Notes under the pieces: generated by a model
The model's input: the letters and a program-made list of their open reading frames with translations, nothing else
What the model was told of the DNA's origin: nothing
Databases searched by the model: none
Part shown: one piece after another, positions 85 to 5,221 of the stretch
Numbering within the stretch: the stretch's first letter is position 1
Layout: every line of letters begins with the position of its first letter
Virus record (IMG/VR): IMGVR_UViG_2724679236_000011
Span: 1-5,221 of that record
Length of the DNA: 5,221 nt
DNA from: a virus
Taxonomy: Duplodnaviria; Heunggongvirae; Uroviricota; Caudoviricetes
Reading direction: 5' to 3' (one strand)
Translations under genes and position numbers: made by a program

Positions 85-780
85 GTCGATGAAGCCAATA
101 TTCGCAACAATTTGTCTCGCAACCTTGACCGCTTTGAAGAAGGTAAGCATTACTTTCTTCTAACTGGTTTAAAATTAAGAGAATTTAAGAACAGAGTAAC
201 CGGAAGTTACTCTGTTGGTAAGAACGCCAGAAGCCTTACACTCTGGACAGAGCGCGGCGCTGCACGCATGTCTAAGATCGTGGACACAAATGAAGCATGG
301 GCATTCTTTGAAAAACTGGAAGACAGCTACTTCCGGCAAAAAGAACAGCAACCGGTTGCAATCCCCCAAACATTACCAGAAGCCCTACGCCTGGCTGCCG
401 AACTGGCTGAACAAAAGCAGCTTCTGGAACAGAAAGCCCACCAGCTAAATCAGCAGCTGGTGGCCGCCGCTCCTAAGGTCGATTTTGCCGACCGGGTATC
501 AGTAGCTAAAGGGATCCTGATTGGGAATTTTGCAAAGGTTGTTGGACTTAAGCAAAATGCGCTGTTTGCCTGGTTACGGGAGAACGGCATCCTGATAGCG
601 TCCGGTGGACGTAAAAATGTGCCGTTCCAGCAGTACATCAACGCGGGGTATTTCACGGTGAAAGAAGTGGAAGATGGCTACCAGATACGGTTGACGCCTC
701 AATTAACGGGTAAAGGCCAGCAGTGGTTGACGCGTAAACTGCTCGATGCTGGCTTGTTAAAACCGGTGGCGGCTGAATAA
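1..780 (+). CDS. Antirepressor-like protein, 5'-truncated by window edge (ORF continues in frame from position 1; track start GTG at 52). N-terminal ORF6N/Rha-like region, coiled linker, C-terminal KilAC/Ant-type domain
   Basis: Long ORF open to window start; stop TAA 778-780. C-terminal motifs (FADRVSVAKGILIGNFAKVVGLKQNALFAWLRENGILIASGGRKNVPFQQYINAGYF) resemble phage antirepressor C-terminal domains as I recall them. A paralog lies inverted at 4451-5221. Confidence 0.7.
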   Translation, partial: QNQPDEIPVLEWQGVRVVTTETLARGYGVDEANIRNNLSRNLDRFEEGKHYFLLTGLKLREFKNRVTGSYSVGKNARSLTLWTERGAARMSKIVDTNEAWAFFEKLEDSYFRQKEQQPVAIPQTLPEALRLAAELAEQKQLLEQKAHQLNQQLVAAAPKVDFADRVSVAKGILIGNFAKVVGLKQNALFAWLRENGILIASGGRKNVPFQQYINAGYFTVKEVEDGYQIRLTPQLTGKGQQWLTRKLLDAGLLKPVAAE

Positions 781-787
781 TGGAAGA

Positions 788-818
788 ATGCCCGGTTGAT
801 GCCGGGCATAATTTATTG
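788..818. terminator. Bidirectional intrinsic terminator between convergent ant-like gene and c1
   Basis: Perfect 8-bp stem ATGCCCGG (788-795) / CCGGGCAT (802-809) with 6-nt loop, followed by AATTTATT on + strand and a T-rich stretch on the - strand side. Sits between stop codons at 778-780 (+) and 813-815 (-). Confidence 0.6.
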
Positions 819-1664
819 CGCGCTTTCGGGGTTGTCGTTTACTGGCTGCCCCTTCTTGGTTTTACGGCTGCGCGTAACTGATGCGGCTGACTTAACCTTT
901 TTCTCTTCGCGAGTGATGGCAATTTGTTTTTTTACATTTTCAATATCTGCCAGGCGATATATTTTTGCTTGCGGCCAGCGGTCGCAGATGATCGGTTCTA
1001 TGGAGTCATAAAGGCTAAATTTTGCTTTTTCGAATTCACCGTTGATGATAATTCCATCACGGAGAGTTTCATCGCAGATAAACACGCCACACAGTGGCAC
1101 ATGGTAACTAACTGATTTACCATCATTGTAGTTAGGGCTACTGGAAATGTAGTGGACGCGCAGCATTGTTTCGCTAAAGCCGTGTACGCGCATACGGAAT
1201 TTTTCATCCTCCGGGTACTGCTTCATTAGCTCTTTTGTTGCTTCCAGGTTCTCTATGTATTTCGCACTGTGCTCATTGATCCCCGCGCTTTTTTGGATGC
1301 GAATGTCCTTATCAATCAGATGAATAATGCGGCCAGCGGTCATGTTGACGCTGTTCACAGCCTCTGTCTGATAAGTTGTAACCTTACGCACACCGCGAAG
1401 GATGTTAGGCACTGGATATAAAATAGTCTTTGGGATATTGAGGTCTGGGTACTGTTCCAGTTCCCGCGCCATTAAAGTCCATTTATCAATTTCAGCCTGA
1501 ATGCTGTCAGTTTCTTTGAACGGTAGAACGACAACCGGGCGTACAGGACGACCGTCGCTGGCTGTATCAACGTGTTGGGCGCGTGCAACAGCTTTTTTTA
1601 GAAAGAGATCCCTGAAGCTGACGAACTCCTGGTACAGTTGTTCGCCGTAGACATAATTTATCAT
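813..1664 (-). CDS. c1: P1-type C1 repressor of lysis (283 aa)
   Basis: 283-aa ORF with strong SD (GGAGGAGG, reverse complement of 1668-1675) upstream of ATG. Length and N-terminus (MINYVYGEQLYQEF...) match my recollection of P1 C1. Sits directly downstream of a 69-aa coi-like ORF and near multiple C1-operator motifs, next to loxP/cre. Confidence 0.85.
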   Translation of the reverse strand: MINYVYGEQLYQEFVSFRDLFLKKAVARAQHVDTASDGRPVRPVVVLPFKETDSIQAEIDKWTLMARELEQYPDLNIPKTILYPVPNILRGVRKVTTYQTEAVNSVNMTAGRIIHLIDKDIRIQKSAGINEHSAKYIENLEATKELMKQYPEDEKFRMRVHGFSETMLRVHYISSSPNYNDGKSVSYHVPLCGVFICDETLRDGIIINGEFEKAKFSLYDSIEPIICDRWPQAKIYRLADIENVKKQIAITREEKKVKSAASVTRSRKTKKGQPVNDNPESAQ

Positions 1665-1774: not shown

Positions 1775-1984
1775 TTATTGTGAGTCCAACTGGTTAGTTG
1801 CCATGAGATATTCGATTGTGTCAGTGAGGTCATCCAGGTCGTCTTGGGTGATGCGGTACTCCTGATTGGATATCTTTGAGTAGTGTTCAGCAATGGCGCG
1901 GGCAGCGTCGGTTTCGGCAGGGTCTACAGATAAAGCGTTAGAGCAATGTCTAACGTCGTCGATGGTTGGTTGAATGAAAGCCAT
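1775..1984 (-). CDS. coi: Coi, C1 inactivator (69 aa)
   Basis: 69-aa acidic ORF immediately upstream of and co-oriented with c1, with a GAGG SD 8 nt before the ATG. Size and position match P1 coi in the immC operon. Confidence 0.75.
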   Translation of the reverse strand: MAFIQPTIDDVRHCSNALSVDPAETDAARAIAEHYSKISNQEYRITQDDLDDLTDTIEYLMATNQLDSQ

Positions 1985-2222
1985 AATTATGCCTCACTGT
2001 ATTGACAACACAGAGCCTGAAGCTCTGACCTACTGTTTCACCCATGATCCATGCTGGGGTAATCTAACAACATTGCGCTGTGTGTAAGATGAGCAATGCA
2101 TAGCTGTAATGCCGTTGTATAAGGTTTCCCTGTTTGCTCATTTCCTTCTGAGCCGCTCTACAACGCTGAAGACACATTAAATAGTGAATCCAAAGTCGTA
2201 TTACGTAACGACGGCAAAACTA

Positions 2223-2245
2223 TAATTTATTAGAGCAATTGTCAA
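2223..2245 (-). promoter_or_regulatory. C1 operator (minus orientation, ATTGCTCTAATAAATTA) abutting a consensus -35 TTGACA; promoter directed toward coi-c1
   Basis: Reverse complement of 2223-2239 is ATTGCTCTAATAAATTA (16/17 to the P1 C1 operator consensus as I recall it). Reverse complement of 2240-2245 is TTGACA; a -10-like TATAGT/TAGTTT lies 15-17 bp downstream on the - strand. The operator overlaps the promoter spacer, as expected for autorepression. Confidence 0.65.
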
Positions 2246-2305
2246 ACAACTATGAAAAACAATCCAGTTTTTAGCTGGTGGAGTGGGATTTTTCTCTCTA
2301 AATTT

Positions 2306-2322
2306 ATTGCTCTAATAATTAT
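2306..2322 (+). promoter_or_regulatory. C1 operator (plus orientation), ATTGCTCTAATAATTAT
   Basis: 13 consecutive matches to the operator consensus core. Inverted relative to the 2223-2239 operator, about 67 bp away, 44 bp upstream of loxP. Confidence 0.6.
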
Positions 2323-2365
2323 TGATTTTTGTGCACAGCTGGACGTAAACTCCTCTTCGGACCTG

Positions 2366-2399
2366 ATAACTTCGTATAGCATACATTATACGAAGTTAT
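2366..2399 (+). other. loxP: loxP recombination site (13-bp inverted arms ATAACTTCGTATA / TATACGAAGTTAT, 8-bp spacer GCATACAT)
   Basis: Exact 34-bp canonical loxP sequence read directly in the window. cre start lies 452 bp downstream, matching the P1 arrangement. Confidence 0.97.
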
Positions 2400-2588
2400 C
2401 TTAAGGGTTATTGAACATGATCAATTTACCTGTAAATCCATACAGTTCAATACCTTATTAGATTAAATAGTGAACACTTGATCATTTGATCAAGGTTGCG
2501 CTACGTAAAATCTGCGAAAAGTTGGCAGAGTTAGTGCTCCAGATTTCGCGTAGCGCGCTTAGCACCACCAATCAATCAGAGGTGAAAA
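2400..2588 (+). promoter_or_regulatory. cre upstream regulatory region with clustered GATC (Dam) sites and promoter-like elements
   Basis: GATC at 2419-2422, 2480-2483 and 2488-2491. The latter two sit in the near-palindrome TTGATCATTTGATCAA (2478-2493), which contains -35-like TTGATC hexamers, with TTGAAC at 2411-2416. Multiple cre promoters with Dam sensitivity are described for P1; exact promoter hexamers are not resolved here. Confidence 0.5.
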
Positions 2589-2810
2589 ATGGGATATTCA
2601 GCTGCTAAAGTGTCCACTCATCTTGAGCTTGAGAAAAACCGTGGTTACTGGCGGGCAAAATGCTTTGAGCGTGATAGTTACCAACTGTCATTATCTCGCG
2701 GTGAAGAGAAAATAGAACGCACACGCGGTCGCTGGCGTTTCTATGACGAGAACCATAACCAGGTAAAGGCAGAGCCGATCCTGTACACTTTACTTAAAAC
2801 CATTATCTGA
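2589..2810 (+). CDS. Hypothetical small basic protein (73 aa), immediately upstream of and probably co-transcribed with cre
   Basis: ATG preceded by strong SD AGAGGTGA (2578-2585) at 5-nt spacing. Stop TGA 2808-2810 lies 7 nt before the cre ATG (2818). No recognisable domain by eye. Confidence 0.5.
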   Translation: MGYSAAKVSTHLELEKNRGYWRAKCFERDSYQLSLSRGEEKIERTRGRWRFYDENHNQVKAEPILYTLLKTII

Positions 2811-2817
2811 GTGTTAA

Positions 2818-3849
2818 ATGTCCAATTTACTGACCGTTCACCAAAATTTGCCTGCATTGCCGGTCGATGCAACGAGTGATGAGGTTCGCAAGAACCTGAT
2901 GGATATGTTCAGGGATCGCCAGGCGTTTTCTGAGCATACCTGGAAAATGCTTCTGTCCGTTTGCCGGTCGTGGGCGGCATGGTGCAAGTTGAATAACCGG
3001 AAATGGTTTCCCGCAGAACCTGAAGATGTTCGCGATTATCTTCTATATCTTCAGGCGCGCGGTCTGGCAGTAAAAACTATCCAGCAACATTTGGGCCAGC
3101 TAAACATGCTGCATCGTCGGTCCGGGCTGCCACGACCAAGTGACAGCAATGCTGTTTCACTGGTCATGCGGCGGATCCGAAAAGAAAACGTTGATGCCGG
3201 TGAACGTGCAAAACAGGCATTGGCGTTCGAACGCACTGATTTCGACCAGGTTCGTTCACTCATGGAAAATAGCGATCGCTGCCAGGATATACGTAATCTG
3301 GCATTTCTGGGGATTGCTTATAACACCCTGTTACGTATAGCCGAAATTTCCAGGATCAGGGTTAAAGATATCTCACGTACTGACGGTGGGAGAATGTTAA
3401 TCCATATTGGCAGAACGAAAACGCTGGTTAGCACCGCTGGTGTAGAGAAGGCACTTAGCCTGGGGGTAACTAAACTGGTTGAGCGATGGATTTCTGTCTC
3501 TGGTGTGGCTGATGATCCGAATAACTACTTGTTTTGCCGGGTCAGAAAAAATGGTGTTGCCTCGCCATCATCCACCAGCCAGCTATCAACTCGCGCCCTG
3601 GAAGGGATTTTTGAAGCAACTCACCGATTGATTTACGGAGCTAAGGATGACTCTGGTCAGAGATACCTGGCCTGGTCTGGACACAGTGCCCGTGTCGGAG
3701 CCGCGCGAGATATGGCCCGCGCCGGAGTTTCAATACCGGAGATCATGCAAGCTGGTGGCTGGACCAACGTAAATATTGTCATGAACTATATCCGTAACCT
3801 GGATAGTGAAACAGGGGCAATGGTGCGCCTGCTGGAGGATGGCGATTAG
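2818..3849 (+). CDS. cre: Cre tyrosine site-specific recombinase (343 aa)
   Basis: Sequence essentially matches P1 Cre from memory (MSNLLTVHQNLPALPVDATSDEVRKNLMDMFRDRQAF...MVRLLEDGD). Catalytic-motif context is present (GHSARVG, GGWTN, MNYIRN with the tyrosine nucleophile). Adjacent to loxP. Confidence 0.97.
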   Translation: MSNLLTVHQNLPALPVDATSDEVRKNLMDMFRDRQAFSEHTWKMLLSVCRSWAAWCKLNNRKWFPAEPEDVRDYLLYLQARGLAVKTIQQHLGQLNMLHRRSGLPRPSDSNAVSLVMRRIRKENVDAGERAKQALAFERTDFDQVRSLMENSDRCQDIRNLAFLGIAYNTLLRIAEISRIRVKDISRTDGGRMLIHIGRTKTLVSTAGVEKALSLGVTKLVERWISVSGVADDPNNYLFCRVRKNGVASPSSTSQLSTRALEGIFEATHRLIYGAKDDSGQRYLAWSGHSARVGAARDMARAGVSIPEIMQAGGWTNVNIVMNYIRNLDSETGAMVRLLEDGD

Positions 3850-4365: not shown

Positions 4366-4424
4366 CAAGCCGTGGCGCTAGTCAACTACGAAGACATGGC
4401 CATTACCTGCTTCTTGAAATCATT

Positions 4425-4448
4425 GGCGGCCTAAAGGCCGCCTTTTTT
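4425..4448 (+). terminator. Rho-independent terminator (GGCGGCC-TAAA-GGCCGCC + TTTTTT)
   Basis: 7-bp GC stem (4425-4431 / 4436-4442), 4-nt loop, T6 run 4443-4448. Lies immediately 3' of the minus-strand ant-like gene stop (4451-4453), so it may act in both directions. Confidence 0.75.
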
Positions 4449-4450
4449 AA

Positions 4451-5221
4451 TCACTCAGCCGCTACAGGCTTTAATAAACTTGCATCGAGCAGTTTACGCG
4501 TCAACCACTGCTGGCCTTTCCCCGTTAGCTGGGGCGTCAACCGTATCTGGTAGCCATCTTCATCATCCAGCACCACTTCTTTCACCGTGAAATACCCGGC
4601 GTTGATGTATTGCTGGAACGGTACATTTTTACGTCCACCGGACGCTATCAGGATACCGTTCTCCCGTAACCAGGCAAACAGCGCGTTTTGCTTAAGTCCA
4701 ACAACCTTTGCAAAATTCCCAATCAGGATCCCCTTGGCCACTGATATCCGGTCGGCAAAATCGACTTTAGGGGCTGCGGCCACCAGCTGTTGTTCCAGCT
4801 GCATTTTCTGTTCAGCCAGTTCGGCAGCCAGGCGCAGGGCTTCTGGAAGCGTCTGGGGGATTGCAACCGGTTGCTGTTCTTTTTGTCGGAAGTAGCTGTC
4901 TTCCAGTTTTTCAAAGAATGCCCATGCCTGATCGGTTTCGAGCATTTTAGCGTGGCGGGCTGCGCCGCGTTCCGTCCAGAGAGTGAGGTGCTTTGCTCGC
5001 GGTGCGACTAAGTTACTTTGAGTAACCTTGTCCTTCAATTCTTTTAATTTTGAACCAGTTAGTAGAAAGTAATGTTTACCTTCCTCAAAGCGATCAGCAT
5101 TACGCGTATAGTTAACTTTGATGTTATTAGTTTCGGTCCCATACCCTCTAGCAAGAGTTTCGGTTGTCACGACACGTACTCCCTGCCATTCCAGAACGGG
5201 AATTTCATCCGGCTGATTCTG
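4451..5221 (-). CDS. Antirepressor-like protein paralog, 5'-truncated by window edge (ORF open to position 5221; track start GTG at 5170)
   Basis: Paralog of the 1-780 gene. Protein is identical over the first 11 residues, divergent over roughly residues 12-80, and near-identical thereafter apart from two in-frame indels and two substitutions. Confidence 0.7.
   Translation of the reverse strand, partial: QNQPDEIPVLEWQGVRVVTTETLARGYGTETNNIKVNYTRNADRFEEGKHYFLLTGSKLKELKDKVTQSNLVAPRAKHLTLWTERGAARHAKMLETDQAWAFFEKLEDSYFRQKEQQPVAIPQTLPEALRLAAELAEQKMQLEQQLVAAAPKVDFADRISVAKGILIGNFAKVVGLKQNALFAWLRENGILIASGGRKNVPFQQYINAGYFTVKEVVLDDEDGYQIRLTPQLTGKGQQWLTRKLLDASLLKPVAAE
5138..5221. repeat. Terminal inverted repeat, right copy
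   Basis: Reverse complement of 1-84, read directly. Confidence 0.95.

Follow-up and report, generated by a model that had tools for sequence, protein, structure and literature searches.

The window, the whole stretch of 5,221 nucleotides analysed here, is a P1-type immC/lox/cre segment. It contains a short open reading frame (ORF) immediately upstream of cre, together with the following features.

813-1664, minus strand: c1, of the P1-type immC/lox/cre segment
1775-1984, minus strand: coi
2366-2399, no strand assigned: loxP (ATAACTTCGTATA GCATACAT TATACGAAGTTAT), by exact pattern match; annotated in X03453 and AF234172
2430-2445, no strand assigned: LexA box (CTGT-N8-ACAG; CTGTAAATCCATACAG), by pattern search; a LexA site is annotated in P1 and P7
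2486-2511, plus strand: P3cre (pR1) promoter, upstream of cra; transferred from AF234172 104-129
2578-2585, plus strand: Shine-Dalgarno sequence (SD) of cra (AGAGGTGA), read from the sequence; putative rRNA binding site in X03453
2589-2810, plus strand: cra coding sequence (73 aa plus TGA), from the ORF list; homolog of P1 Cra, P7 Upf0.2 and X03453 ORF1; PHROG 804
2665-2694, plus strand: P2cre (pR2) promoter, within cra; transferred from AF234172 283-312
2782-2806, plus strand: P1cre (pR3) promoter, in the last cra codons; from AF234172 400-424 and X03453 449-473
2811-2817, plus strand: cra-cre spacer GTGTTAA, 7 nt, without an effective SD for cre
2818-3849, plus strand: cre, a tyrosine recombinase of 343 aa, from the ORF list; annotated as cre in AF234172, P7 and X03453
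3900-4211: c8-like gene

The promoter positions rest on the annotation of P1 and X03453, with AF234172 coordinates shifted by +2382. The window Cre is 99-100% identical to the Cre proteins of P1-clade loci.

The ORF preceding cre starts with ATG, ends with TGA and encodes 73 amino acids. Its SD, AGAGGTGA, ends 3 nt ahead of the ATG, with the GAGG core approximately 6 nt upstream. The encoded protein contains 14 Lys and Arg residues (6 K, 8 R), where a first-pass annotation of this DNA had given about 16, and 10 acidic residues, with a pI of 9.4. The same annotation described the ORF as occupying the interval from the cre promoter region to cre; the ORF does abut cre, but P2cre and P1cre fall inside it. 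Counting every ORF of 30 aa or more, the window has 55, among them spurious ORFs that reach 60-110 aa, and the length of the cra ORF is by itself not significant. This ORF stands above chance because it is conserved, not because of its length.

The c1-coi-lox-cra-cre-c8 block is flanked, at 1-814 and 4417-5221, by two copies, inverted relative to each other, of the 3' portion of an antirepressor (KilAC/Ant) gene. Complementarity between the copies runs at 79-98% over four blocks and is 98% in the outermost 89 nt. The closest record, Escherichia albertii plasmid pEA4_97, encodes a Cra 100% identical to that of the window and carries complete inverted icd-ant pairs on both sides. Homologous recombination between the inverted copies could invert the immC-lox-cre block. 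Two further observations concern lox itself. A Salmonella-type locus (L007, 1467-1500) has a lox site with P1 arms and the 8-bp spacer ACACACAT in place of GCATACAT, which would make it incompatible with loxP recombination. In addition, a perfect 34-bp loxP lies inside the annotated portal protein gene of Lactococcus phage Q33 (JX564242 / NC_049809, 17548-17581; H23/H24), a match far too long for chance that may be a relic of engineering or an error of assembly.

The ORF is the annotated P1 gene cra

BLAST against phage records returns the region at 95-97% identity to P1, P7, SJ46, RCS47 and others, and the features underlying these matches bear the labels cra, Upf0.2 or 'putative Cre-associated (regulatory) protein'. 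AF234172, the P1 reference genome, places cra at 207..428 with a 'putative cre associated function' (AAQ13977). P7 (AF503408) names the gene upf0.2, and X03453, the cre sequence of Sternberg et al. 1986, lists it as 'pot. ORF1 (aa 1-73)' with an RBS feature of its own. The arrangement loxP, cra, cre on the cre strand is common to the window, AF234172, AF503408 and X03453. The window Cra is 93% identical to P1 Cra and P1-type clusters and matches phrog_804 over residues 3-73 (E=2.1e-32). Like P1 cra, it occupies the interval between loxP and cre, encodes 73 aa and has an identical SD and cre junction; the P3cre and P1cre sequences of P1 are likewise identical to those of the window. The ORF, which the first-pass annotation took as having no named gene in standard P1 annotation and as possibly overlooked, is thus the known P1 gene cra, which has been annotated for decades. 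In work on loxP published in 2008, the short ORF that separates loxP from cre goes by the name cra (PMC2409434), and in a 2023 genome-wide CRISPRi screen cra was non-essential for plaque formation (PMC10695390), plasmid maintenance lying outside that assay.

The window allele differs from P1 Cra by G25C, at a nearly invariant Gly, and by D27E, C31Y and K57N. The first two changes fall in codons 25-27 (2661-2669). Codon 25 is TGC (Cys) at a position where Gly is at least 90% conserved in a 48-member family alignment; Cys25 is unique among 78 P1-clade copies, two others of which have Trp25. The D27E change (GAT to GAG) abolishes the GATC Dam site of the P1 P2cre -35 element, which reads TTGAGC in the window vs TTGATC in P1.

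Many NCBI homologs of Cra carry the label 'creatininase' (clusters P0002, P0007, P0008, P0021, P0022, P0026, P0042 and P0056; plasmid matches H29, H32, H43 and H44). We rejected this assignment: Cra has 73 aa vs a length of approximately 260 aa for that family, to which it has no match, and searches of Pfam and NCBIfam with Cra return no match at E values up to 1. It seems to be an artefact of annotation that has propagated through public records.

cra evolves as a protein-coding gene

A homology search with Cra returns 41 protein clusters, including 71-aa forms of 59-70% identity from P1-like plasmids of Klebsiella and Salmonella, whose loci keep the order lox, cra, 7-nt gap, cre. Between P1-like lineages with Cre proteins approximately 80% identical, dS for cra is greater than 1.5 or is saturated or not computable, dN is 0.25-0.35, and omega is at most 0.2 (0.04 for L007 vs L010). 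Differences per codon position range from 8/5/35 to 22/15/42 across four lineages and lie mostly at the third position. The cra frame is the only one of the six open in all four lineages, and it is kept in lineages with 35% DNA divergence.

Within the P1 clade, 82 loci were picked with a Cre query, not a Cra query, to avoid bias; the sample comes mainly from IMG/VR, and a contig scan of genomes gave 2 Cre loci. An intact, ATG-started 73-aa cra adjoins cre in 75 of the 82 loci and is parted from cre by an inserted gene in 3 more, so that 78 carry an intact ATG-started cra. CTG replaces the cra ATG in 2 loci, and cra is frameshifted in the remaining 2. Among variant codons in the 78 P1-clade cra sequences, 30 are nonsynonymous and 21 synonymous (pN/pS 0.40), and nonsynonymous changes are fewer than neutrality predicts (binomial p=0.0016). 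The corresponding ratio for cre is 31:136 (pN/pS 0.07), and cra is much more relaxed (Fisher p=9e-8). Judged by these comparisons, cra is a genuine protein-coding gene under purifying selection. The earlier conjecture that the ORF is conserved holds on both counts, namely dN/dS across lineages and a frame open in 78/82 loci.

Geometry of the cra-cre junction

SD strength was calculated as the duplex of the 20 nt before a start codon with the 16S 3' end and was compared with the 20-mers of the window. The cra SD, noted as strong in the first-pass annotation, reaches -11.7 kcal/mol, within the top 1% of window 20-mers, and diverged lineages have equal values (-11.5 to -12.0 kcal/mol). The 20 nt preceding cre form a duplex of -3.0 kcal/mol, which 58% of random window 20-mers at least equal. 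The start of cre is thus poorly served by an SD of its own, as had been proposed. Over all lineages and architectures, the cre value lies between -3.0 and +1.0 kcal/mol (background median -3.3), and the values of the neighbouring genes cra, orf356, orf131, c1, coi and c8 lie between -5.8 and -14.7 kcal/mol.

The stop codon of cra ends at 2810 and cre begins at 2818, leaving the 7 nt described earlier. All 77 P1-clade loci with an adjacent cra (77/82 sampled) have this stop-start gap, as do three diverged lineages, one Klebsiella-type and two Salmonella-type. The length is constant and the spacer sequences have diverged (GTGTTAA, CTAACTT, GCAGACA). In-frame deletion alleles of Cra (69, 68, 64 and 45 aa) still end with the original C-terminus at the original stop, as do alleles with a compensated double frameshift (P0010, P0017, P0019).

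Three loci (L065, L079, L084) carry a 131-aa ORF between an intact cra and cre, the stop codon of which overlaps the cre ATG (ATGA). This ORF, orf131, has a strong SD of its own and in L065 spans 448-843. Across these architectures, any gene that precedes cre, whether an adjacent cra or orf131, ends at or beside the cre start codon. The Cre proteins of the three loci begin with MTNSL, as in the Salmonella-type lineage, which suggests that the orf131-cre junction is recombinant. On the other side of cra, the lox-cra interval of the diverged lineages (L004, L007, L010) contains orf356, a 356-aa gene (phrog_7674; 1934-3004) whose stop codon overlaps the cra start (ATGA) to give a chain orf356-cra-cre; orf356 is absent from P1 and from the window. 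A 68-aa ORF also lies in this interval in L004 and L007.

Termination-reinitiation is established for bacterial operons with short or overlapping junctions. Like such coupled pairs, cra and cre combine a stop codon near the downstream start (7 nt, or an ATGA overlap in the orf131 variant) with a downstream cistron devoid of an effective SD, and ATGA overlaps recur at the orf356-cra and orf131-cre junctions. They differ from such pairs in having internal promoters that would give uncoupled cre transcripts. Since cre starts without an SD of its own, it is most likely reinitiated from cra. Folding of the mRNA across the cre start (2740-2870) gives a structure no better than shuffles (z=0.24). Coupling by unmasking was ruled out on this basis, there being no structure that hides the cre start, and because no stable structure sequesters that start, coupling would likely proceed by termination-reinitiation. 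We infer that cra and cre are probably translationally coupled, a reasonable reading with comparative support.

Annotated promoters inside cra and the limits of the proposed coupling

The first-pass annotation suggested that Cre translation may depend on the upstream ORF. The 7-nt gap, the missing cre SD and the ATGA variant favour this dependence, but it is not absolute, as the internal promoters and a frameshift allele indicate. P3cre, located ahead of cra, has two Dam sites (2480 and 2488) and is identical in sequence to its P1 counterpart. By the P1 annotation P2cre and P1cre start inside cra, and part of the cre mRNA therefore cannot be coupled. Only 11 nt separate the -10 element of P1cre (CATTAT) from the cre ATG, and the leader of a P1cre transcript would be only a few nucleotides long. 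Furthermore, a 1-nt deletion (GAGCGTGAT to GAGGTGAT) cuts Cra to 41 aa and places its stop codon 102 nt before cre. This allele is widespread, being indexed in 138 blocks of the collection, and it always accompanies a full-length 343-aa cre; full-length Cra and tight coupling are consequently dispensable for persistence of the element.

These features raise the alternative that Cre translation is independent of cra altogether, proceeding on P2cre and P1cre transcripts from the weak TGAGTG or from a near-leaderless start, with the 7-nt gap a product of compact packing. The two annotated promoters inside cra, the proximity of the P1cre -10 to the cre ATG and the intact cre genes beside frameshifted cra alleles all speak for it, as does a -10-like hexamer whose position agrees across four lineages (CATTAT, TATAAT, TATCAT, AACAAT). 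However, the hexamer coincides with the Thr-Ile-Ile codons of a C-terminal motif conserved also in homologs with no downstream cre, and it may for this reason be a by-product of coding. In L065, moreover, the hexamer CATAAT ends 2 nt before the cre ATG, so that a promoter there could not include the start codon. A scan of 2300-2900 for consensus sigma-70 promoters and terminators called nothing, P3cre included. Finally, compact packing sits poorly with a spacing kept exactly while the spacer sequence is not, and with the overlap of the orf131 stop codon and the cre ATG. Taken together, we place full independence of cre from cra on the unlikely side.

Between lox and P3cre, 159 nt ahead of cra, lies the LexA box (2430-2445), which is conserved in L007 and L010. 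In P1 this box overlaps the leftward promoter P2coi, and SOS control probably acts on coi, not on cra-cre. Two Rep3 plasmids have a LexA box approximately 96 nt upstream of a Cra homolog; it sits beside umuD and off the apparent promoter of the Cra-like gene. No LexA box was found at SSU5-type and phage homologs of Cra. We do not take these boxes as evidence that cra is under SOS control.

Cra homologs outside P1-like elements

A profile built from P1-type Cra only, searched against 1.84 billion protein representatives, returns 15 clusters. The distant homologs in this search have 65-79 aa (E values 3e-10 to 1e-4) and share with Cra the motifs ELEK-x2-GYWRAKGF, R-x-D-x-I, W and LxxLLKxII. With tblastn, 675 plasmid records contain distant copies; these are pMT1 of Yersinia pestis and plasmids of approximately 110 kb from Klebsiella, Enterobacter, Salmonella and Shigella, which we take to be SSU5-type. 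On pMT1 and SSU5-type plasmids, the Cra homolog closes an operon, with approximately 430-570 nt of non-coding sequence and a convergent repA beyond it. In these loci (L095, 3510-3722, of Y. pestis pMT1; also L096 and L097), the 70-aa Cra-family gene overlaps a 111-aa gene. On Rep3 plasmids of approximately 90 kb, the homolog is divergent from umuDC, and in the 157-kb Salmonella phage ST-W77 it precedes a Pyr_excise (denV-like) gene. Further homologs occur in other phage-like contigs.

The 70-aa proteins of the pMT1/pHCM2/SSU5 type (e.g. WP_002222711 of Y. pestis pMT1) and the 79-aa proteins of the ST-W77 type resemble Cra in length and motifs and belong to the same family. They differ from it in having 30-40% identity, in standing terminal or alone near repA, umuDC or a denV-like gene, and in having no cre downstream. 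By these sequence relationships, Cra belongs to a small family whose members occur in phage-plasmids of enterobacteria and in some virulent phages. In eight distant loci examined, no tyrosine recombinase is adjacent to the Cra homolog; pMT1 has an annotated 'recombinase' approximately 3 kb upstream, known by annotation only. The proposal that the ORF is an element of the Cre/lox system in particular does not fit these homologs, which lack an adjacent recombinase, and 'Cre-associated' is best read as a positional label only. Because the conserved C-terminus of Cra is kept where no cre follows, it belongs to the protein itself and does not merely reflect the cre promoter. Structure prediction (pLDDT 77.9) gives Cra as a small basic protein of generic alpha+beta type, predicted to consist of a helix, a four-stranded meander and a C-terminal helix.

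Discussion

As a genuine coding gene, cra is likely to be the first cistron of an mRNA that starts at P3cre and also carries cre. We further consider it likely that cre is translated from this mRNA by termination-reinitiation, and that the function of Cra is independent of Cre. In such a scheme, the P3cre transcript would carry cra and then cre. Ribosomes would load at the strong cra SD, translate 73 codons and stop 7 nt before the cre ATG, and cre would be started mostly by ribosomes that have just terminated on cra. The expected outcome is a low level of Cre synthesis that, on the long transcript, is tied to translation of cra. Transcripts from P2cre and P1cre would provide a second, cra-independent and probably inefficient route to Cre. 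Any activity of the Cra protein is likewise inferred.

A variant of this scheme assigns the Cra family a conserved function of its own, which might lie in DNA metabolism, in the control of replication or in interaction with the host, and has P1-like elements placing cre behind cra in order to set Cre output through translation of cra. We judge this version decidedly unlikely; if true, Cra might link Cre-lox recombination to the signal that controls cra. Conceivably, Cra could also interact directly with Cre or lox in the P1 branch alone.

It is very doubtful that Cra is a trans-acting factor of Cre-lox recombination, be it a directionality factor of the Xis kind or one that represses the cre promoters. 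The idea draws on the position of a small basic protein just upstream of a tyrosine recombinase and beside a recombination site, a position kept in all P1-like lineages examined, and on the name 'cre associated' chosen by the P1 annotators. Indeed, Cra resembles xis-int modules in gene order, size and positive charge. It departs from them in having no excisionase or helix-turn-helix signature or fold, and the eight distant loci reveal no consistent association of the family with recombinases outside P1-like elements.

Were cra only a translated leader that feeds ribosomes to cre, its peptide being functionless, then the strong SD and tight junction would be expected, as would the weak constraint in the P1 clade (pN/pS 0.40) and the tolerance of in-frame deletions. 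Purifying selection on the amino acids across lineages (omega at most 0.2), the motifs common to terminal and stand-alone homologs with no cre, and the predicted fold (pLDDT 77.9) run against this explanation and render it highly improbable. As for a chance ORF devoid of coding function, a run of 73 codons without a stop is not unusual, and spurious ORFs of like length are numerous in the window, but the third-position bias, the saturated dS with low dN, the frame open in 78/82 loci and at 35% DNA divergence, and the homologs at 30-40% identity lead us to regard this notion as refuted by the data.

The preferred reading, with cra as first cistron and cre reinitiated behind it, bears on a system that is among the most widely used of genetic tools. 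To our knowledge, how cre is expressed in its native setting seldom receives attention. The gene cra itself has long been known, and the new points are modest, namely the conserved stop-start geometry, a cre start without an SD across lineages and a Cra family independent of Cre, together with a flag on the misleading 'creatininase' name in public annotation. The comparisons suggest that native Cre synthesis is held low by the missing SD and draws on ribosomes that have just finished the preceding cistron. This logic of Cre supply may be useful in studies of P1 plasmid maintenance or in reuse of the native cassette.
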